Below are positions 39,405 through 48,429 of a DNA stretch of 64,000 bases, piece by piece (within the stretch, counting starts at the first letter, position 1; each line of letters starts with the position of its first letter). The DNA comes from an uncultured Thermoplasmata archaeon (GTDB taxonomy: Archaea > Thermoplasmatota > Thermoplasmata > RBG-16-68-12). Below the pieces are notes generated by a model. That model had not been told where the DNA came from, ran no database searches, and worked only from the letters and a program-made list of their open reading frames with translations. The translations under genes were made by a program, and so were the position numbers. Where the stretch lies: contig CAVYJM010000006.1 of NCBI GenBank assembly GCA_963768855.1, forward strand, positions 896,001 to 960,000, read 5' to 3'.

Positions 39405-40112
39405 TCACGCCATGATCCGCGTGACCTTGAACCCGTTGTCGAAGACGAGAGCGTGGTAGTCCGTGTCGTGACGCGTGCCGCGCATCTTGACGATCCGGAG
39501 CTGGCGCTGCATCCCGAACTCGCCCTGCCTCGCGAGCCGCAGGTGCACGACGCCGTCCGCGAGATACTCCTCCTTGTGCTTCGCGAAGACCTGGCTCGCG
39601 GTTGCGCCGTCGTCGCTCGGCAGCTCTCCGAGGAGGAACACGGTGCACTCCAGCCCCCGGAGCCACCGGATCAGGGCGAACAGCTCCCGCCTCACATCCT
39701 GGAACTTGGCGAGGATCTCGAGCGCGTCGAGCGAGTCGATGACGAGGAGGCGGTAGTCGAGGGATTTCCTCAGGCCCTTGGCGTACAGCTTGAAGAGGTC
39801 CATCCAAGGCTGGTCGACCGGGCCCGTGATTTTCTTCCGGAGCGCGGCGAGATCGAGCACGCTCAGGTTCCCTTCGACATCCGCGAGGCGGTAGCCCAGG
39901 CCTTCCGTGTGATCGAGGAGACTGGCGCGGCTCTGCTCGAGGGAGACGTACAGCCCCTTCACCCCGGTCCGTGCGTTCGCATGGAGCACGTGGTACGTCA
40001 GGGAGGTTTTCATCGTCCCGGGCGCGCCAGAGACGAGCACGACGCTCCCTTCCGGGATTCCCTTCCCGAGGATCTCGTCCAGGCCGTCGACGTACGTCTT
40101 GATGAAGTTCAT
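39405..40112 (-). CDS. KaiC/RAD55-like ATPase (operon gene 10)
   Basis: GAPGTMKT P-loop, YVSLEQ, LVIDS, EYLADG, RQLRIVKMRG. Confidence 0.9.
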   Translation of the reverse strand: MNFIKTYVDGLDEILGKGIPEGSVVLVSGAPGTMKTSLTYHVLHANARTGVKGLYVSLEQSRASLLDHTEGLGYRLADVEGNLSVLDLAALRKKITGPVDQPWMDLFKLYAKGLRKSLDYRLLVIDSLDALEILAKFQDVRRELFALIRWLRGLECTVFLLGELPSDDGATASQVFAKHKEEYLADGVVHLRLARQGEFGMQRQLRIVKMRGTRHDTDYHALVFDNGFKVTRIMA

Positions 40113-41866
40113 GGTTGCTCCCCCGCGATCGCTTCGAGACGACGACGGATGGATTCGACCTGACCCTGGATCCGCTGTTTCTCTTGGGGCACGTCCACGA
40201 TTTCCGCCATGGCCACGAGATCGACCGCCGCGCGGTCCGCGAGTCGGGCAACGTCCCCGGGCCGCAGATCCTCCGGTCTCTTCCCCAGCTTTGACAGTTC
40301 GGACCGGAGGACGCCTTCGCCCGCCTCGCCGAGCTGTTCGACGAAGATGGAGCGGGCGCGCTCGAAGAGGGATTCCCGTTCGCTCAGGTCGCTCGCCACG
40401 GCGAAGAGCTCGTCCATCTCCTTGCCCTTCCAGTAGTCCGCCGCGGTCACCAGGATGCCCCGGTCCGCCTCGGATGCGCGGCGGGAGGGCCAGTCGCCCT
40501 CCGCGAGGTCTTGCGGGCTGCGCTCGGCGAACGCCTGCAGCGCGGCGCTGGCCGCGGTCGCCTGGACGCGGAGGCCCGAGCGGGCCGCATCGTCCGCGGC
40601 GGGGTCCCCGAGTTCGCGGACAGCTCGATCCAGAAAGCGCAGGAACGGGTCCGTGTCGCTGAGGGTGAGGTCCTCCCGGCGGAGGGAACGGGAACGGCAG
40701 AACGCCTCGAGGAGCTGACGGGCGCCCGGACCAAAGGACTGCGCGAGGACGGCCTCCATCTCCTCGGACGGGTCGGGCAGGGTCCACCAGGCCAATCGGT
40801 GCCCCTTCAGGTCCTCTTTCTCCCGGGTCGTCAGGCGGGATGCGGACACCGCGAGGCTGCACCGGGTGTCCCGGCACACGCTCCGGAGCCGCAGGAGGAT
40901 TGCCTGGGTCCGCGGCCACCCCGACATCATCGCGATGTCGGCCGTGTCGACGAGGACCGCGAGGCCGCCCGACGATCGGGTCCCGAATTCCGCGACCGTG
41001 CCGAGGGTGCGGGGAGCAGCGTGGGGGGTCGAAGAGATCGTGGCGAGCCCCGGGGGCGGATCCAGTGCCGTGATGGCAGGGCTTCCCCGGCCCACGACGA
41101 GCGTGGCCTGGCCGCGCCGGGCGGCCAGTCCCGCCAGGTGGAGCGCGTACTTGGGACGCGCCTCGTCCAGAACGACGGTGAGGCCCGGTTCGATTTCTCC
41201 CTGAACGGTCGGCCCCCGGCTCCGCCGCGGCCGCATTCCCGGGAACGGTTCGGAGTGGAACAGGACGTAGGCGAACAGGGCCACCGCTACCGGCGCCGCG
41301 ACGTTCGACCCCGCGGACTGGAGGATGCCGAGATCCTGGAACTCGAGGGCGTAGATCGGACCTCCGATGATGAGGGCGGCGACAGCGAACGCGAGCCAGA
41401 ACGAGTCGGCCGCGAACAGGGGGCTCACCATCCTCTCGTAGACGGGCTCCGCGAGGGCGACGCCCAGGCAGACGATCAGGAACGCGCCCAGGAGGTTCGG
41501 CTCATAGGCGTGCGCGACGGCCCAGTCCGCGCTCGGGGTGAGCACGACGACGATCGGGACGAGGGCCAGGAGTGCGAACACGGCGGGCCGGCGGCGCGGC
41601 ACGGTCTCTCCGTGGATTAGGGTGAGGACCAAGATCGCCGTGAGGGGATGGGCGAGGACCAGGGTCCACAGGACCGCCCCCTCCCACGCCGGCGCGAGGA
41701 AGCCTTCCGAGGTCCCGATGAAGGCCGCGCCGTTCACGATGAGCGTGAGGACGAGGGCCGCGAACGTGGCCTGCAGCCACGGGCGTCTCCCCCGGACGAC
41801 GACGAGCGCTAAGAGCCAGGCCTCCACCGCGAGGCCCGCGCCGACGGCGAGGCTGTATGCGATCAC
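40109..41866 (-). CDS. 7TM membrane protein with a DUF835-like degenerate ATPase domain and repeated helical modules (gene 9)
   Basis: Seven hydrophobic segments, then VVLDEARPK...AVLVDTADIAMMSGW; GGAGG SD and GTGA overlap. Confidence 0.7.
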   Translation of the reverse strand: MIAYSLAVGAGLAVEAWLLALVVVRGRRPWLQATFAALVLTLIVNGAAFIGTSEGFLAPAWEGAVLWTLVLAHPLTAILVLTLIHGETVPRRRPAVFALLALVPIVVVLTPSADWAVAHAYEPNLLGAFLIVCLGVALAEPVYERMVSPLFAADSFWLAFAVAALIIGGPIYALEFQDLGILQSAGSNVAAPVAVALFAYVLFHSEPFPGMRPRRSRGPTVQGEIEPGLTVVLDEARPKYALHLAGLAARRGQATLVVGRGSPAITALDPPPGLATISSTPHAAPRTLGTVAEFGTRSSGGLAVLVDTADIAMMSGWPRTQAILLRLRSVCRDTRCSLAVSASRLTTREKEDLKGHRLAWWTLPDPSEEMEAVLAQSFGPGARQLLEAFCRSRSLRREDLTLSDTDPFLRFLDRAVRELGDPAADDAARSGLRVQATAASAALQAFAERSPQDLAEGDWPSRRASEADRGILVTAADYWKGKEMDELFAVASDLSERESLFERARSIFVEQLGEAGEGVLRSELSKLGKRPEDLRPGDVARLADRAAVDLVAMAEIVDVPQEKQRIQGQVESIRRRLEAIAGEQP

Positions 41867-42393
41867 GCCGCGCCTCCTAGCGGGCGGACCTTGAGCACCG
41901 CAACGAGGTCCCGGGGCCGCCACTTCCAGCGGGCGCTCCCCGACTCCCGCATCTCCGGAGCCGAGTGGAACCCGGCCTTGCGGGCCTCCTCGTCCGTCAC
42001 GTCCGCGAGGAGCTTGCGCGTGCCGTCGACCACGAGCAGTCGGCCGAACGGCCGGCCCGTGTCGTACTTCGCCCAGACCACCTGGCCCACGAGGGGCAGC
42101 GAGACGTCGCCAATCGGGCGGATCATGAGCTCCGCGCCGCCCCGGAGGAGCCGGTCCCCTTCATCGAGGGTGAACGCCAGCTCCCCGTGAGGCCGCCGGC
42201 GGGGCAGCTCCCCGGACAGCGCGGCGCGGAACCCGAGGATCACGAGGAACGTGACGAGCCCGCCGAGCAGGAGGAGGTTCGTGAAGCCGATCTGGTAGAA
42301 GTTGCGGTGCTCCCAGAACCCGAAGACGAGGACGACGGAGAGGAGGAAGAGCAGGCCGGCGCGGGCGAGCAGGGTCACGAACCGTCGGGGCAT
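41863..42393 (-). CDS. Two-TM protein with ASCH/PUA-like domain (gene 8)
   Basis: Two TM helices, then LMIRP...VGQVV...LADVTDEEARKAGF. Confidence 0.65.
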   Translation of the reverse strand: MPRRFVTLLARAGLLFLLSVVLVFGFWEHRNFYQIGFTNLLLLGGLVTFLVILGFRAALSGELPRRRPHGELAFTLDEGDRLLRGGAELMIRPIGDVSLPLVGQVVWAKYDTGRPFGRLLVVDGTRKLLADVTDEEARKAGFHSAPEMRESGSARWKWRPRDLVAVLKVRPLGGAA

Positions 42394-42396
42394 GGC

Positions 42397-43140
42397 TCAC
42401 CCGATCGCTCGAGCGACCTCGAACCGGCCGTTCTCGAAGAGGAGCGTGTGGTCCTCGCTGTCCTGGTTCACGCTCCGCATCTTCGTGCACTGGATCCGGC
42501 GCTGGAACGACGTCTCCGTGACCGGGGCCATGCGCAGCCGCAAGATGCCGTCCGCGAGGAACTCCTCCTCGAGGACGTTCCCGCCCGCGCCGAGCCCCGG
42601 CTCCTCGGAGACGAGGAGGCTCGTGACCCCGAGGTCCCGGAGCCACTCGAAGAAGGCGAACGTCTCCGTCCGGCGGTCCTTGAACTCGAGGACGAGTTCG
42701 AGCGCGTCCCAGGAGTCGATCGCGAGGAGGCGGAAATCCTGGCGGCGCCGCAGATCGAGGATCTTCCCCTGGAGGACCGTGAGGAGGGCCTCGCCCTGCC
42801 GCAGGTCCGGACCCGCCATCTCGCCGACCTTCGCCGCCATTTCCTCGAGGTACTCGCGGCCGCGGCTCAGGTCGAGGATCGGCAGAGAATCGGAAACCTG
42901 CGTCGCGCGCAGTCCGAGCCCCGCGACGTGCTCGAGGAGGCTCGCGGCGCTCTGCTCCAGGGTCACGTAGAGCCCGGGCGTCCCCTGGAGGGCGTTGTGG
43001 TACAGGATGTAGTAGGCGAGGGAGGACTTCATCGTCCCGCTCGCGCCCCGCAGGAGGAGCACGTGCCCCTCGGGCACGCCGCCCCGGAGGACCTCCTCGT
43101 CGAAGCCTCGGATGAACGTCTTCACGGGGGTGCGGGCCAT
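42397..43140 (-). CDS. KaiC/RAD55-like ATPase (gene 7)
   Basis: GASGTMKS, YVTLEQ, LAIDS, EFLADG, RRIQCTKMRS. Confidence 0.9.
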   Translation of the reverse strand: MARTPVKTFIRGFDEEVLRGGVPEGHVLLLRGASGTMKSSLAYYILYHNALQGTPGLYVTLEQSAASLLEHVAGLGLRATQVSDSLPILDLSRGREYLEEMAAKVGEMAGPDLRQGEALLTVLQGKILDLRRRQDFRLLAIDSWDALELVLEFKDRRTETFAFFEWLRDLGVTSLLVSEEPGLGAGGNVLEEEFLADGILRLRMAPVTETSFQRRIQCTKMRSVNQDSEDHTLLFENGRFEVARAIG

Positions 43141-43148
43141 CGGACACC

Positions 43149-44858
43149 TCACGGGCTCATCGCGCGGGTCACCTTGAACCGCCCCTCGTCCAGGACCAGG
43201 GCCATGTAGCCCGTCTCATGCTTCGTGCCGCGCATCTTGACGACGCGCAGCCGGCGCTGTAGCTCCACATCGGAGACGAGGTGCTGCCGCAGATGGAGGA
43301 CGCCGTCCGCGAGGAAGTCCTCGTCCCAGCGGCCTTGCATCACGTGGCCCCCGATGACCCAGTCGGGCCGCTCCGTGACCACGAAGCTCGTGACGTCCAG
43401 GTCCCGGAGCCACTCGAACAGACGGAAGATCTCGCGGCGGCGGTCCTTGAACTTCGCCAAGACCTCGAGCGCCTCGAGGGAATCGATCACGACGAGGTCG
43501 AGCCCGCGCTGGGCCTTGACCGCCTGGAGGGCGTGCTGGAACGTCTCGACCCAGTCCTTCCGTTCCTCGAGCAGCCCCTTCGCCGCGCGGGGATCCATGA
43601 CGACGAGGGATCCGCTGGTGACGTGGAGGGGCAGGCCGATGGAGCCCATCTGCTTCAGCAGGCTCGACGTCCGCTCCTCGAAGCTCAGGTAGAGGCAGTG
43701 CAGGCCCGCGTGCGCGGCGTTCTGCGCGAGCACGGAGAAGCTCAACGAGGACTTCATCGTCCCCGGCGCCCCGGAGACGAGCACGATGTGGCCCCAGGGG
43801 ATGCCGCCGCCGAGGGTCTCGTCGAGCCCGTCGACAAACGTGCGGACCCGGGCCGGGTGGGCCTTCGTCTCCTCCGCCGGTTTCGGTGGAGGCGGAGCGG
43901 GCGGGGCGGACAGGTCGGCGAAGTCGGGGAAGTCCTCGTCCTCGGGAGGGGCCACGGTCGCGGGAGGAGTCACCGGCGCCACGGGCTCCGGCTCGGGTTC
44001 CGCCTCGGCGGGTTCCGGGGCCGCTTCCGGGGCGCGCGTGGCGAGCTTCTCGTACCGCACGCGGGCCGTCCGGTGGTCGGGCCGGAGCTCCAGGGCTTTC
44101 TGGAAGCTCTTCGTGGCGTCGACCGGACGGTCGAGGGCCTCGAGGACGATGCCTCGTTCGGACCAGGCCTCCGTCAGCGCGGGGTTCGCCTGGACCGTGC
44201 GGTCGAGCACCTCGAGCGCGCCCGGCAGGTCCTCCATGGACCGGAGCGTGCGGGCGAGCCCGAGCCATGCGCTGTCGTTCGGCGGATCGAGCTCGATGGC
44301 GCGGAGATAACCGACAGCGGCCTTGTAGGGCCTCTCGAGGCGCAGGTACGCCTCCCCCAGGAGGGTCCACGAGCGGGGATCGCCGTCCTCCTTCGCGATG
44401 GCCTTGAGGAGATGCTCGATGGCAGCGTCGAAGTGACGCTCGCGGAACGCTTGGGTCGCCGCCTCGAGCTGCCGCGTCACGGCCTGCTTGGCCTCGTTGC
44501 TCGGGGCCTTCCGGGGGCGATCGCTCGTGTAGGGTTTGAATCGCTGGCCCGAGGCGGATGCGCGCTGGGCAATCCGATCCTTGAGTGCAGCGACGGGATC
44601 GCTTCGAGCCGGGGTACCGGGGGCAGGGAGAGCCGCGGCCTCCTCGGGCCGCGGCTCCGGCGGTACCGTCTGTGCGCGGCGGGGCCTCTTGACAACCGCG
44701 CTGTAGACCTCGCTGCCCATGACACGCTGCAGGTGGACGGGCTGTTCCGGAGGAGGTGAAGCCGTCTCGGCCGGGAGCTCGTGGCCGCAGATCCGGCAGC
44801 GGGCCTGGCCCGGTTCGTTCGTCGAGTAGCAGGCAGGGCACCGCACGGTTGGCGTCAT
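43149..44858 (-). CDS. Double Zn-ribbon - TPR - KaiC/RAD55-like ATPase fusion (gene 6)
   Basis: CPAC...CRICG, about four TPR repeats, Pro/Glu linker, GAPGTMKS, VVIDS, RRLRVVKMRG. Confidence 0.9.
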   Translation of the reverse strand: MTPTVRCPACYSTNEPGQARCRICGHELPAETASPPPEQPVHLQRVMGSEVYSAVVKRPRRAQTVPPEPRPEEAAALPAPGTPARSDPVAALKDRIAQRASASGQRFKPYTSDRPRKAPSNEAKQAVTRQLEAATQAFRERHFDAAIEHLLKAIAKEDGDPRSWTLLGEAYLRLERPYKAAVGYLRAIELDPPNDSAWLGLARTLRSMEDLPGALEVLDRTVQANPALTEAWSERGIVLEALDRPVDATKSFQKALELRPDHRTARVRYEKLATRAPEAAPEPAEAEPEPEPVAPVTPPATVAPPEDEDFPDFADLSAPPAPPPPKPAEETKAHPARVRTFVDGLDETLGGGIPWGHIVLVSGAPGTMKSSLSFSVLAQNAAHAGLHCLYLSFEERTSSLLKQMGSIGLPLHVTSGSLVVMDPRAAKGLLEERKDWVETFQHALQAVKAQRGLDLVVIDSLEALEVLAKFKDRRREIFRLFEWLRDLDVTSFVVTERPDWVIGGHVMQGRWDEDFLADGVLHLRQHLVSDVELQRRLRVVKMRGTKHETGYMALVLDEGRFKVTRAMSP

Positions 44859-45580
44859 GGGCTGATCACCGAGGTGACCTGGAACCGTCCGTCCTCGAAC
44901 ACGAGGGCGTGGAACCCAGTCTTGTGGTTCGAGCCGCGCATCTTCACGACCTGCATGCGCCGCTGGATTTCGACGTCCGTAATGGGATGCATCTTGAGCT
45001 CGATGATGCCGTCCGCGAGGAACGTCTCGTCCTTCCGGGGCGGGGCGGACTCGAGCCCGAAGAAGCTGGCCTCGGGGGACGCCTCCGTCAGGACGAGCGT
45101 CGTGGCGCCGAAGTCCCGTAGCCACTCGAAGAAGTGGAACAGCTCGGTCCGGCGGTCCTCGAACTTCGCGAGAACCTCGAGCGCCTCTAGGGAGTCGAGG
45201 ACGACGAGGTCGACGCCATCGATCTCCTTCGTCGTCGTCAGGCTCCGCCGCAGGAACTCAATCCAGGGCTTCGTCGCGCTCTTGCCGATCTCCTTCTGGA
45301 TCGTGCCCACGTCGAGGAGATGCAAGTCCCCACGCACGGCCTCCGTGTTGAAGCCCATCGAGTCCATCTGTGCGAGGAGGCTGCGACGCGTCTGCTCTAG
45401 GGTGACGTACAGCCCCTTCGCACCTCGCTTCTCCACGTTGTTCTGGAGGATCGCATAGCTCAGCGTCGATTTCATCGTGCCCGGAAGCCCGGAGACGAGG
45501 ATGACGTGGCCTGCGGGCAGGCCGCCGCCGAGCGCCTCGTCCAAGCCATCCACGAACGTCGGGATCTTCTTGATTTCCAT
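44855..45580 (-). CDS. KaiC/RAD55-like ATPase (gene 5)
   Basis: GLPGTMKS, YVTLEQ, VVLDS, TFLADG, RRMQVVKMRG. Confidence 0.9.
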   Translation of the reverse strand: MEIKKIPTFVDGLDEALGGGLPAGHVILVSGLPGTMKSTLSYAILQNNVEKRGAKGLYVTLEQTRRSLLAQMDSMGFNTEAVRGDLHLLDVGTIQKEIGKSATKPWIEFLRRSLTTTKEIDGVDLVVLDSLEALEVLAKFEDRRTELFHFFEWLRDFGATTLVLTEASPEASFFGLESAPPRKDETFLADGIIELKMHPITDVEIQRRMQVVKMRGSNHKTGFHALVFEDGRFQVTSVISP

Positions 45581-45611
45581 GTTCACACGTCTCCTGGGGT
45601 CCAACCTTGTG

Positions 45612-45995
45612 TCATGCCATAGCCTCCTGGTGGAGGATCACGTCCACCAGCCGGGCGGTTTTTTCCATGGCCATCAGCACGAGCCCGAGGTTTGCGTCTT
45701 TGTAGACTAAGGCGACGAGGAGGGCCTCCTCCCCCGCGCCGAGGCTCAGGAGCTTGCCCTCATCCGACTCGATGATGGCGCGCTCGAAGTGGCCCTGGGA
45801 GAGTTGGATCGTGGCCATCTCCGAAGTGCCGACGATCGCGGCCGTCATCGCGGCTACGATCCTCGGGTCCACGCCGTCCGGGAGCGTGTGGGTGATCACG
45901 AGCCCGTCCCTCCGCACGACCGCGGCGGCCTTGATGTCCGTGACGTGCGCGAGGTCGTCCATCGCGGCCTCGAGACGCTGCCACACGTCGGTCAC
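45612..45995 (-). CDS. Roadblock/LC7 (MglB-like) protein (gene 4)
   Basis: AAAVVRRDGLVI...AAMTAAI...ANLGLV. Confidence 0.9.
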   Translation of the reverse strand: MTDVWQRLEAAMDDLAHVTDIKAAAVVRRDGLVITHTLPDGVDPRIVAAMTAAIVGTSEMATIQLSQGHFERAIIESDEGKLLSLGAGEEALLVALVYKDANLGLVLMAMEKTARLVDVILHQEAMA

Positions 45996-46387
45996 GTCCC
46001 GACCTCCTGCGCGGCCGTTTCCATGAGGTCGGCGATCGACTGGACGGCCTTGCCCACGCTGAGGAGGACGAGGCCCATGTTGGCGTCCGTCCGGACCATC
46101 GTGATGAGGATGCCTTCCTCGCCTGCGCCCGTGGCGAGCATCTTGACCTTCTCGCTGTCCACAATCGACTGGAAGAACGGGCCGAACCCCATCTCCCCGG
46201 CAGCCATCTCCGAGGTGCCGACGATTGCGGCGGCCATGGCGGCGATCCGCTTCGGGTCCATGCTCTTCGGGAGGAGGTGGGCGATCAGCAAGCCGTCGCG
46301 CCGCGCCAAGGCGACGGCGACGACGTCCGGGATGCGGCGGAGCTCCTGGAGGACGCCGATGAGGCGGGCGTGGAGCGAGTCGACCAT
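45992..46387 (-). CDS. Roadblock/LC7 (MglB-like) protein (gene 3)
   Basis: ALARRDGLLI...AAMAAAI...ANMGLV. Confidence 0.9.
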   Translation of the reverse strand: MVDSLHARLIGVLQELRRIPDVVAVALARRDGLLIAHLLPKSMDPKRIAAMAAAIVGTSEMAAGEMGFGPFFQSIVDSEKVKMLATGAGEEGILITMVRTDANMGLVLLSVGKAVQSIADLMETAAQEVGT

Positions 46388-46388
46388 C

Positions 46389-47564
46389 TCACCTCACCCC
46401 GATGATCATCTCGGCGAGGATCAGGAGCGCGTCGCGCACGCCCGAGTTCGCCGTCGCCACGGTGGCCAAGATGGGCGTCTCGTCGGGCAGCTCCATCTTC
46501 CGTGCAATCACGTCCGGCTTCAGGGCGCCCGGGAGGTCCGACTTGTTGGCCAAGACAACGTAAGGGATCCGTGGCCCGATCAGCTCGAGCATGTACTTCG
46601 CGCGCTCGAAGTCCTCCGGCCGAGTCGCATCGACCACGAGCAGGACGCCGCTGACCTCCCGCGCGAAGATCCGGAAGATGAACTCAAAGCGTTCCTGGCC
46701 GGGCGTACCGAAGACCTCGGCCTCGATGCCCGTGATGTTCACGCTGCCGTAGTCGAAGGCGACGGTTGTCCCCATGCGGTCGATGCTGATCGACTTCTCG
46801 CAGAGGACCCTGACCACCGTCGACTTGCCCGCATTGAAAGGACCCGTGACGAGGATCCGCGGGAAGTACACCGTCACACCGACGAGATCCTTGAAGGTGT
46901 ATGGAATCCAATTCGTGCGGATCCCGTCTTCCTGCATCTGCGAGATGCGCATCGAGTTGCGGAGGATTCCTCCGCGCATGGAGGACTGGAACTCGATGAT
47001 GAAGTCCGACATCGCGCGGATCGTGCCGAGGTCGCGCTCGTGGTAGGTCCAGTTGATGAAGAGGAAGCAGGTGACGCTGTGGGCGGCTTCCGAGGCCTCG
47101 ATGATCCGTCGCCACTCCGAGAGCACCGCTTCCTTGGGGAATCGGTCCGAGAGGAACTCCATGGAGTCGATGACGATCCGGGCGGGCCGCTCCGCCTCGA
47201 TGGCGTCGACGATGACATCCGTGATGCCGATTAGGCTGCCGATGTCCTTGACGCTGTACTTCTCCATGCTCGGGACGAGGAGCTGGCTTGAGATCGCGTC
47301 GACGATGACGAGGTTCTCCTGCGAGAACTTGCCGAAGCGGCCGAGCTCCGCGCGAGCGAGGCTCGGCGCCCGGAAGAAGTCCACATACAGGGTCGTCTCG
47401 CCCGTCTTGGCGCCCTCGACCGCGAAGTTCTCCGCGAAGAGCCGCTTCTCCGTCGGCTTGTCACTGAACAGGAGGAGCGTGGATGGCCGAGGGAATCCGC
47501 CATTGAGTCGCTCGTCGAGGATCTGGATCCCGGTCTTGACCCGAGTCGTGTCGGGATCGCCCAT
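46389..47564 (-). CDS. Degenerate KaiC/RAD55 domain fused to an MglA/CvnD-like small GTPase (gene 2)
   Basis: N-terminal KTGIQILD...IVIDS with the P-loop lost; C-terminal GPFNAGKS, TTVAFDYG, FGTPGQERF, NKSD. Confidence 0.9.
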   Translation of the reverse strand: MGDPDTTRVKTGIQILDERLNGGFPRPSTLLLFSDKPTEKRLFAENFAVEGAKTGETTLYVDFFRAPSLARAELGRFGKFSQENLVIVDAISSQLLVPSMEKYSVKDIGSLIGITDVIVDAIEAERPARIVIDSMEFLSDRFPKEAVLSEWRRIIEASEAAHSVTCFLFINWTYHERDLGTIRAMSDFIIEFQSSMRGGILRNSMRISQMQEDGIRTNWIPYTFKDLVGVTVYFPRILVTGPFNAGKSTVVRVLCEKSISIDRMGTTVAFDYGSVNITGIEAEVFGTPGQERFEFIFRIFAREVSGVLLVVDATRPEDFERAKYMLELIGPRIPYVVLANKSDLPGALKPDVIARKMELPDETPILATVATANSGVRDALLILAEMIIGVR

Positions 47565-48229
47565 CAGAGGCCTCCCGTGACCACCGGCATCTGGACGAAC
47601 GGGTGCCAGGTGCTGTCGACCTGGAATCCCCTCATGTGGTGCACGCGCACCTCGTGGTCCATTGTGTCGGTGAAGCGCATCTCCACGACGCCGTCGACGA
47701 GGGACCGCAGGAGGTTCATCGTCATCTGCTCGTGGACGCCTTCGTGGACGGCGTACATGATGAAGCCCATGTTCATCTTCGCGCGGCTCGTGACGATCTG
47801 GAAGAACTTGGCAATCGCTTGCGTGGAGTTGTGAAGGAACAGGGTCGAGATCGTGTAGAAGTAGATCCGGACGGGCGTCCCGAGCTCCTGGGCCGCCTTG
47901 CTCATCGCCATCCCGATGCCCTCGAGGTTGCTGAAGCTCGACACGAGGAACGTCTTCTTGCCGGCGGGAACCTCGGGCCGCTCCGAGGCGGTCGCGCTGT
48001 AGCAGTCGACGAAGGCGAAGCTCCGGCCCTCGTACTGGTCCAGGTCGAGCTTGAGGGCCTTGGCCCGCGCGCGGATCTCGGACGGGTGGAGGTCGAGCGT
48101 CACGAAGACGACGCGCTCGCCCGCCCGCAGCGCCTCCCGCACCTGGGCGATCATGTACTCGAACTTGCCCACGCCGGGCGGGCCGCCGAGTAGGATCGCG
48201 TAGTTCGTCGGGAACCGCGGGTCACCCAT
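47564..48229 (-). CDS. KaiC/RAD55-like ATPase domain protein (gene 1)
   Basis: GPPGVGK, FVTLD, FVDCYS, LVDGVVEM, VHHMRG. Confidence 0.85.
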   Translation of the reverse strand: MGDPRFPTNYAILLGGPPGVGKFEYMIAQVREALRAGERVVFVTLDLHPSEIRARAKALKLDLDQYEGRSFAFVDCYSATASERPEVPAGKKTFLVSSFSNLEGIGMAMSKAAQELGTPVRIYFYTISTLFLHNSTQAIAKFFQIVTSRAKMNMGFIMYAVHEGVHEQMTMNLLRSLVDGVVEMRFTDTMDHEVRVHHMRGFQVDSTWHPFVQMPVVTGGL

Positions 48230-48309
48230 GGCCGAGCCCCCTGCGGGCTCGCGCTCGTAGCCGACGGCGAGAGACCTGGTTCACTGTCCGTCTCGATGCC
48301 CCGATTTCG

Positions 48310-48317
48310 CTTATAAG
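48310..48317 (-). promoter_or_regulatory. TATA box, candidate promoter of the KaiC/Roadblock operon
   Basis: CTTATAAG about 80 nt upstream of the first ATG. Confidence 0.5.
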
Positions 48318-48429
48318 GGCCGTGCCGTAGTTCTCACCCTTGAGAGTGGCACGGGCCCCGACCCCGCCGACTCGGGGGGATGCAGGGAGGATTGAAGAGC
48401 GGGAAAGGGATTAGGCACCTGGAGGAGAG

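Follow-up and report, generated by a model that had tools for sequence, protein, structure and literature searches.

A pseudo-KaiC domain fused to a small GTPase, with Roadblock genes and a degenerate KaiC-like neighbour, in an uncultured Thermoplasmata archaeon and in other archaea

The fusion protein at the Thermoplasmata locus

We analysed a stretch of 64,000 nucleotides (hereafter the window) from an uncultured Thermoplasmata archaeon of the GTDB lineage Thermoplasmatota; Thermoplasmata; RBG-16-68-12 (assembly GCA_963768855.1, contig CAVYJM010000006.1, positions 896,001 to 960,000 of the forward strand). The gene of interest encodes 391 amino acids (aa) and joins a KaiC-like domain of the RecA fold to a small GTPase domain. 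This fusion gene and the two Roadblock/LC7 genes that follow it are genes 2–4 of a ten-gene operon on the minus strand (39405-48229), of which a short KaiC-like gene, here called g1, is the first. The GC content is 64–71% across the window, and the assembly is a 2.87-Mb archaeal one with a completeness of 94%. The four genes and the motifs of the fusion are located as follows.

47564-48229, minus strand: g1, short KaiC-like protein (P0004), operon gene 1, 221 aa
46389-47564, minus strand: fusion gene (P0001), 391 aa, pseudo-KaiC plus small GTPase
46860-47564, minus strand: pseudo-KaiC (RecA-fold) domain, fusion residues 1-235, with the Pfam KaiC match over 9-233
47445-47465, minus strand: former P-loop SDKPTEK, fusion residues 34-40
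46929-46940, minus strand: QMQE at the position of the KMRG arginine finger, fusion residues 209-212
46389-46859, minus strand: small GTPase domain, fusion residues 236-391 plus the stop codon
46818-46844, minus strand: G1 motif GPFNAGKST, fusion residues 241-249
46764-46769, minus strand: G2 motif TT, fusion residues 266-267
46695-46712, minus strand: G3 motif FGTPGQ, fusion residues 285-290
46536-46547, minus strand: G4 motif NKSD of the fusion
45992-46387, minus strand: Roadblock/LC7 protein 1 (P0002), 131 aa, PF03259 with E = 9.5e-12
45612-45995, minus strand: Roadblock/LC7 protein 2 (P0003), 127 aa, PF03259 with E = 1.8e-14

The N-terminal domain of the fusion is recognised by the Pfam KaiC profile PF06745 (E = 1.4e-17, 64.3 bits against a cut-off of 26.6). 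Its nearest solved fold is PH0284 (2dr3_A, Z 25.2, root-mean-square deviation (rmsd) 2.6, 221 aligned), followed by KaiC (8dba, Z 23.2) and FlaH (4yds, Z 21.3); SSO2452 is also among the nearest solved folds of both this domain and g1, behind PH0284. When the domain is aligned with the operon's own KaiC-like paralogues, SDKPTEKR falls on the Walker A sequence GLPGTMKS. The Walker A pattern GxxxxGK[ST] is absent, with its three Gly replaced by S, P and E and its Ser/Thr by Arg. At the position of the catalytic Glu the fusion reads VDFFR, compared with TLEQ or ..EE in active domains, with FF standing for the Glu pair. QMQE takes the place of the KMRG arginine finger, at a position that is variable across the family. 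The Walker B pattern hhhhD is present (RIVIDS), and D133 and S134 are invariant in close relatives, as are E39, K40 and R41 of the former P-loop. Within the order the former P-loop is conserved as S[DE]xPxEKR, and likewise in a copy from Hydrothermarchaeota; other lineages have xPG[IV]E.. at the former Walker A site, with the Lys absent. No lineage sampled has a Walker A motif in this domain, and in every one of them its motifs mark it as an inactivated KaiC-like domain.

The C-terminal domain matches the Arf profile PF00025 over residues 236-384 (E = 4e-13, 49.6 bits against a cut-off of 22.3) and the small_GTP model TIGR00231 (E = 2.7e-15). The motifs G1 to G4 are all present; close relatives never deviate from FGTPGQ and GTTV, which nearly the whole family shares. 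MglA-family groups 2–5, which include CvnD and an archaeal group 4 (PMC4316618), are defined by GTPGQ together with a Thr where the G2 Arg would be, and because these motifs decide the class, we assign the fusion GTPase to the MglA group 2–5 type. It is not MglA proper (group 1), since it has GTPGQ rather than TVPGQ and TT in place of RT. Because G1 and the G2 threonines are only 16 residues apart, there is no space for an insertion between G1 and G2. Comparison of folds places the G domain close to Arf6 (3lvr_E, Z 20.6, rmsd 1.9, 147 aligned) and MglA (5ymx_A, Z 19.3, rmsd 2.8, 165 aligned), and Rab and Sar1 fit about as well; with Z values from 20.6 to 18.7, Arf, MglA and Rab are inseparable by fold. 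The best sequence matches of the domain are Arl, Arf and Rab proteins (E about 1e-10), and MglA is absent from the top 60 PDB matches. Regarding Arf-family features, the G3 Asp of DxxGQ is Gly, and the N-terminus, a free amphipathic helix in that family, is taken up by the fused domain.

An AlphaFold2 model of the fusion, built from an alignment of 47 sequences, has a predicted local distance difference test (pLDDT) score of 88.3 and a predicted template modelling (pTM) score of 0.76. The model draws a single strand through residues 229-240, which continues the final strand of the KaiC-like domain into β-1 of the GTPase. This linker-less junction, YFPRILVTG, is conserved, with P235 found in at least 90% of the 47 sequences of the phylum-wide alignment.

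The two downstream proteins score 44.9 bits (Roadblock 1) and 53.6 bits (Roadblock 2) with PF03259, for which the cut-off is 23, and they are 46% identical to each other. The MglB equivalog model NF052242 gives them 22.2 and 28.1 bits, below its cut-off of 200 bits. The PDB relatives of Roadblock 2 are the Roadblock/LC7 structures 9jue_D (3.6e-17) and 7f8m (6.5e-15), then CvnB5 (3leq, 7e-6), with MglB at 0.045 or weaker. The locus had previously been described, from the sequence of the window, as a degenerate KaiC that has lost its P-loop (SDKPTEK) and KMRG finger (QMQE) and is fused to an intact GTPase with FGTPGQ, a mark of CvnD-like GTPases, with two paralogous Roadblocks downstream. This description agrees with our results in each of these respects: the alignment to the paralogues places both losses where the original prediction had them, the GTPase is complete from G1 to G4, FGTPGQ is typical of the groups to which CvnD belongs, and both small proteins are Roadblocks.

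Conservation of the fusion and its partners

The fusion belongs to a family of at least 278 clusters at 60–97% identity, nearly all of them 392–395 aa in length, and because of this conservation it is not a chance open reading frame. Full-length matches were found in 41 of 301 sampled genomes of the class and 71 of 401 sampled genomes of the phylum, with 27–36% identity outside the order. A wider scan, which covered one genome per species, added copies of full length from records under the names ANME-2, Methanocellales, Halobacteriota, Ca. Alkanophaga, Ca. Hydrothermarchaeota, Ca. Altiarchaeota and Nanohaloarchaea, the complete genome CP012986.1 being among them. Among 1.84 billion representatives at 50% identity, 91 match at E ≤ 1e-30, and the top matches are mostly full-length (about 370–415 aa). 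The same fusion, for which a search in other archaea had been suggested with the original prediction, is accordingly present across the class Thermoplasmata, its phylum and further archaeal lineages. Since the N-terminal domain is dead in every lineage, we consider the fusion to be old and the dead ATPase to be a part of its design, not a case of decay in this genome.

Some of the records involved require a comment. Close relatives of the fusion carry record names such as "Thermoplasmata archaeon", "Methanobacteriota archaeon EA_x", "Euryarchaeota archaeon RBG_19FT_COMBO_69_17" and "uncultured Methanomassiliicoccales archaeon". Clusters of the ESM Atlas with KaiC and Arf domains that are labelled Methanobacteriota were not used to define the range, as this label is the NCBI name for unclassified Euryarchaeota records. 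At locus L103, from a metagenome-assembled genome (MAG) of Ca. Hydrothermarchaeota, the fusion is 44% identical and of the SDGPAEKT type, which is the subtype of the window's order, and the Roadblock groups with that order and not with other phyla, together with a g1 that is canonical (GKT); this combination suggests a transfer of the fusion–Roadblock pair, or a binning error. Locus L123, from a record titled Colwellia polaris MAG, has a module of the Nanohaloarchaea type on a contig binned as a gammaproteobacterium and is probably a binning error. Four longer forms of the fusion (609–643 aa; P0052, P0060, P0092 and P0101), all from one source, may represent read-through, mis-called genes or longer fusions.

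A Roadblock gene and a short KaiC-like gene of the g1 type, one of each, lie next to the fusion in most loci of all these groups. Within the window's order, g1 is located upstream of the fusion at every locus with enough flanking sequence, whether Roadblocks are present or not. The same ten genes in the same order are found in families f1 and f6, and likewise in f5 with a single Roadblock, while f7 lacks a Roadblock and has the six downstream genes in divergent orientation relative to g1 and the fusion. The g1 protein matches the Pfam KaiC profile (E = 4.5e-14) and DUF7504 (E = 4.5e-12), and its AlphaFold2 model (pLDDT 91.7) also has PH0284 as the nearest fold (2dr3_A, Z 25.3, rmsd 2.1, 204 aligned). 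In the window, its Walker A sequence is GPPGVGKF, without the Ser/Thr, and its Walker B sequence is IYFYT, with the Asp replaced by Tyr; HHMRG is kept. Throughout the order the motif is GPPGVGK[FLM] with the same Asp to Tyr replacement, and elsewhere it is mostly GK[ED], with the Walker B Asp often changed to Asn or His. By these motifs, the conserved partner is itself degenerate.

The possible association of these two degenerate units was assessed by modelling the complex of the N-terminal domain of the fusion (residues 1-235) with g1, each supplied as an alignment, with unrelated proteins rather than paralogues serving as controls. The pair reached an interaction score (ipSAE, computed from the predicted aligned errors) of 0.84, compared with 0.01 for the best control. 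Of solved complexes, 58 of 80 attained the mark applied to this score, as did 2 of 110 mismatched pairs. The runs agreed in at least 97% of the contacts, with a partner pLDDT of at least 86. The contacts predicted on the fusion comprise residues 34, 36-39 and 41 in the former P-loop, 63-66 around the former Glu pair, 134-141 after Walker B, 170-173 and 194-201; those on g1 (79-85, 97-118 and 134-154) correspond to the helices flanking its Walker B strand. The contact residues E39, K40, R41, F63, R65, D133 and S134 are invariant or nearly so in the close family, and the predicted interface with g1 would explain the invariance of the three residues that lie in the "dead" P-loop (E39, K40 and R41).

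A Roadblock accompanies the fusion in most lineages sampled, which upholds the Roadblock link of the original prediction but not a dedicated pair as a general feature. Most lineages have one Roadblock, and the pair is a local duplication within the window's order, because both members fall inside one well-supported clade of that order; elsewhere a single gene is the rule. An R-D-G motif is common to the 69 Roadblocks of the module; the Asp of the DG pair is predicted to lie within 5 Å of MglA in group 2–5 systems (PMC4316618). Other duplications were noted. In the f4/g5 genus an additional GTPase, which stands alone, comes after the two Roadblocks (L019:11356-11946, L029:1208-1933, L030:6023-6577 and L031:6013-6564); it is 34–38% identical to the G domain of the fusion, and here the duplication takes in the GTPase as well as the Roadblock. 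In two Halobacteriota MAGs (L105 and L109) four Roadblock paralogues surround the fusion, three upstream and one downstream, an independent amplification.

The integrity of the GTPase can be compared with the presence of a Roadblock gene. At the 11 loci of the order where the GTPase is decayed (f2, f3, f7 and one f4 genus), no Roadblock was found within at least 6 kb or to the end of the contig. These GTPases have lost the G2 TT, their G3 reads GVPGK, GVRGD, GEPTD, GTPGK, G[ED]PAD, GAPGD or GDPDD, and G4 is often gone. Among loci with an adjacent Roadblock, G1, G2 and G4 are kept in 35 of 35 and the G3 Gln in all but one. On a tree built from the N-terminal domain only, the state of the GTPase changes three times and the Roadblock adjacency three times, and two of these changes coincide. 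In active lineages the G domain is 12–18 points more conserved than the N-terminal domain, and after decay it evolves faster than that domain. Five genomes with a decayed GTPase have 2–3 Roadblock genes each, and five with an active one have 4–9.

The decayed forms amount to "doubly dead" fusions, pseudo-KaiC with pseudo-GTPase, in sister families of the order (L016:9551-10708, L018:9887-11071, L020:9199-10407, L024:9517-10677, L033:7351-8514 and L038:7500-8693). They retain g1 upstream and are still conserved, for example with 53–59% identity of the G domain between genera, and from their sequences they look like pure scaffolds.

The operon and its genomic setting

The remaining genes of the operon, numbered from g1, are listed here.

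44855-45580, minus strand: gene 5, KaiC-like (Pfam)
43149-44858, minus strand: gene 6, Zn-ribbon, tetratricopeptide repeat (TPR) and KaiC domains (Pfam)
42397-43152, minus strand: gene 7, KaiC-like (Pfam)
41863-42393, minus strand: gene 8, 176-aa protein, no Pfam match
40109-41866, minus strand: gene 9, 585-aa protein, no Pfam match
39405-40112, minus strand: gene 10, KaiC-like (Pfam)

The KaiC-like domains of genes 5, 6, 7 and 10 have a Walker A motif of the form G-x-P/S-G-T-M-K-[ST], in which Met replaces the last Gly of GxxxxGK[ST], and they retain Walker B and KMR[GS]. These four paralogues are probably active, judging by the motifs that they keep. Genes for two tRNA synthetases flank the operon on the opposite strand, one with a class II core domain (F) (PF01409), the other of class I (W and Y) (PF00579).

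The junctions from g1 to Roadblock 2 are very tight. The stop codon of g1 overlaps the ATG of the fusion (TGATG), the stop codon of the fusion lies 1 nucleotide (nt) before the ATG of Roadblock 1 (TGAgATG), and the GTG start of Roadblock 2 overlaps the stop codon of Roadblock 1 (GTGA). With such junctions, these four genes are predicted to be translationally coupled. A TTATAA box about 85 nt upstream of the start of g1 (48300-48320, minus strand), spotted by eye only, is a candidate archaeal promoter of the operon. A promoter and terminator scan of bacterial-type models, which are inapplicable to archaea, gave no signal above shuffled sequences.

The genome as a whole contains 27 matches to the KaiC Pfam profile, 17 matches to the Arf profile and 7 Roadblock genes. 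Three small-GTPase genes are arranged in tandem elsewhere in the same genome (C7:106432-108227).

A GTPase switch on a KaiC-like scaffold as a possible archaeal module

We propose that the locus is one copy of a module present in many archaeal phyla, in which a Roadblock-regulated GTPase switch sits on a scaffold of two degenerate KaiC-like units, and we estimate the probability of this interpretation at roughly 0.6. The module would consist of a GTPase of the MglA group 2–5 type, carried without a linker on a KaiC-like RecA-fold domain that would be unable to act as an ATPase; of the short, degenerate KaiC-like g1; and of a Roadblock/LC7 protein, here represented by two paralogues. The former nucleotide site of the fused domain would have become a fixed protein–protein surface that holds g1, and the GTPase would thereby sit on a KaiC-like hetero-oligomer. 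A Roadblock dimer, in this organism probably a heterodimer, would bind the G domain as MglB binds MglA and would set the rate of GTP hydrolysis, the rate of nucleotide exchange, or both. The fixed junction could then let the G domain and the KaiC-like scaffold communicate the GTP/GDP state to each other, and the rest of the ten-gene operon, with its four KaiC-like domains, the TPR scaffold and the 585-aa protein, would probably supply the input or the output. The sequences themselves show the domains, the state of the motifs, the order of the genes and how far each is conserved; binding, GAP or GEF activity and the direction of the signal are inferred.

That the Roadblocks regulate the GTPase is plausible by comparison with known systems. 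In MglA/MglB of Myxococcus xanthus and Thermus thermophilus, and in groups 2–5, the gene of a Ras-superfamily GTPase likewise lies beside that of a Roadblock-fold partner. Groups 2–5 have in common with the module the G3 GTPGQ, the Thr for the G2 Arg and the DG pair of the Roadblock, and the archaeal group 4 lacks the G1–G2 insertion, as does the fusion. By this analogy, together with the adjacency and the co-losses, the Roadblock dimer may function either as GTPase-activating protein (GAP) or as guanine nucleotide exchange factor (GEF). In contrast to MglA/MglB, the GTPase of the module is fused to a pseudo-KaiC domain and a second KaiC-like protein is an obligatory neighbour; it lacks the TVPGQ and the intrinsic Arg finger of true MglA, and the Roadblocks resemble archaeal Roadblock/LC7 structures and CvnB5 more closely than MglB. 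The set analysed by Wuichet and Sogaard-Andersen (2014) consisted of single-domain proteins of up to 240 aa, and its archaeal group 4 was reported without conserved neighbours (PMC4316618); the fusion, at 391 aa and with its N-terminal KaiC-like domain of 235 aa, falls outside that set.

The conservons of actinobacteria (CvnA-D) similarly place a GTPase of the GTPGQ type and a Roadblock in a multi-gene signalling operon, and CvnB5 is a detectable relative of Roadblock 2. Scanning of the operon proteins with Pfam revealed neither a CvnA-type histidine kinase nor CvnC (DUF742), and the operon is thus not a conservon, having KaiC-like proteins in place of CvnA and CvnC. The eukaryotic Rag–Ragulator system and the Roadblock/longin platforms of Asgard archaea (PMC10933270) offer another parallel, in that the Roadblock dimer would likewise be a platform for a GTPase, and the two Roadblocks of the window would probably form a paralogue heterodimer in the manner of LAMTOR2/3. 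Unlike the Rag proteins, the GTPase of the module has no C-terminal Roadblock domain, and there is no membrane anchor. Inactivated KaiC (iKaiC) domains are known from archaeal signalling proteins (Makarova, Galperin & Koonin 2017, as cited in PMC5847659), and archaeal KaiC hubs of this kind share with the fusion a KaiC-type RecA fold that is inactivated and joined to a signalling domain, and the genome of the window has many KaiC-like paralogues; the solved KaiC-like relatives of the module are PH0284 (2dr3), SSO2452 and FlaH/ArlH. What distinguishes the fusion from iKaiC proteins is that the attached domain is a small GTPase and that g1 is predicted to form a hetero-interface with it at the former ATP site. 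A literature search on archaeal KaiC with Roadblock, GTPase or MglA returned no paper on the fusion architecture, although an earlier description in the 2017 KaiC-hub paper is possible. New here are the degenerate g1 partner, its predicted interface with the former P-loop, the co-losses of Roadblock and GTPase, and the origin of the Roadblock pair by duplication within the order.

Several observations weigh against the proposed module. K40 occupies the position of the Walker A Lys and D133 is kept in the order, so that some binding of nucleotide is possible. The high score of the g1 complex may stem from its likeness to solved KaiC-like homo-oligomers, and because the controls were unrelated proteins, it does not establish specificity for g1 over the other five KaiC-like domains of the operon. 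There are only two independent co-losses of the Roadblock and the GTPase motifs, and a sign test on the three independent contrasts, two of them concordant, is not significant (median p = 0.5). At three loci (f55 and f37) the GTPase is intact and no Roadblock adjoins it, and locus L056 keeps its Roadblock despite a G3 Gln to Leu change. With 7 Roadblock genes and numerous small GTPases in the genome, it is only by adjacency that the Roadblocks can be called dedicated to the fusion.

Part of this evidence could also be read in other ways. If the N-terminal domain were not inert, it might bind a nucleotide or another small ligand at its altered site and serve as an allosteric sensor for the GTPase instead of a docking surface. 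The Lys aligned with that of Walker A and the retained Walker B (hhhhDS, here VIDS), both seen in this order, would fit such a role, as would the invariance of E39, K40 and R41 among close relatives. We nevertheless find it unlikely, given that all three Walker A Gly are replaced, the Ser/Thr is Arg and the Glu pair is FF, that other phyla have no Lys at this position (xPG[IV]E..), and that the complex model places g1 in the very site where the ligand would bind. It is slightly more unlikely still that the Roadblocks do not act on the GTPase at all and are adaptors for the KaiC-like proteins or for some other machine, such as a type IV pilus. Archaeal pilus loci do contain Roadblock genes, this genome has several other Roadblocks, and some intact fusions lack a Roadblock neighbour; on the other hand, Roadblock adjacency tracks the integrity of the GTPase in the order, the RDG motif matches the DG pair of the MglB partners of group 2–5 GTPases, and Pfam detects no pilus gene in the operon.

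The original prediction had the dead KaiC domain dock the GTPase onto rings formed by the active KaiC paralogues of the operon, with the Roadblock heterodimer as GAP or GEF. We regard this as possible but rather doubtful. In its favour, KaiC-like proteins assemble into rings, and the fused domain is closest in fold to PH0284 and KaiC. The operon also encodes four more KaiC-like domains, all of which have a Walker A Lys, a Walker B motif and KMR[GS], and families f1 and f6 conserve all ten genes, as does f5 apart from having one Roadblock. Outside the order, however, the fusion travels with g1 and a Roadblock but without those four genes, and the only pair that was modelled, which is also the conserved one, involves the degenerate g1. 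An active KaiC ring is therefore not the conserved partner of the fusion, as the partner that travels with it lacks the Walker A Ser/Thr and, in this order, also the Walker B Asp. Docking onto active rings would be compatible with the module that we propose, as an added layer. A bolder extension of the module, which we offer as speculation of doubtful standing, is that g1 and the pseudo-KaiC domain alternate in a RecA-type hetero-ring bearing three GTPase domains, with the former ATP sites as permanent interfaces, much as catalytic and non-catalytic sites alternate in the α3β3 assembly of F1 or subunits in the Elp456 ring. The GTPase cycle, set by the Roadblocks, would then replace the ATPase and phosphorylation cycle as the timer or switch of a KaiC hub, and the sister lineages with both a dead ATPase and a dead GTPase would be pure scaffolds.

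An ancient origin is generally assumed for small GTPases that have Roadblock partners, as is a relationship to the eukaryotic Rag/Ragulator and Arf-like systems, and to our knowledge their roles in archaea have hardly been described. The principal signalling hubs of archaea have been proposed to be KaiC-like proteins. The module described here physically joins a Roadblock-linked GTPase to a KaiC-like hub across many archaeal phyla. The copy in the window offers several handles, namely the predicted interface between the former P-loop and g1, two Roadblock paralogues, and natural relatives with a decayed GTPase and no Roadblock, and the biochemistry of any single copy would open a whole class of archaeal signalling.

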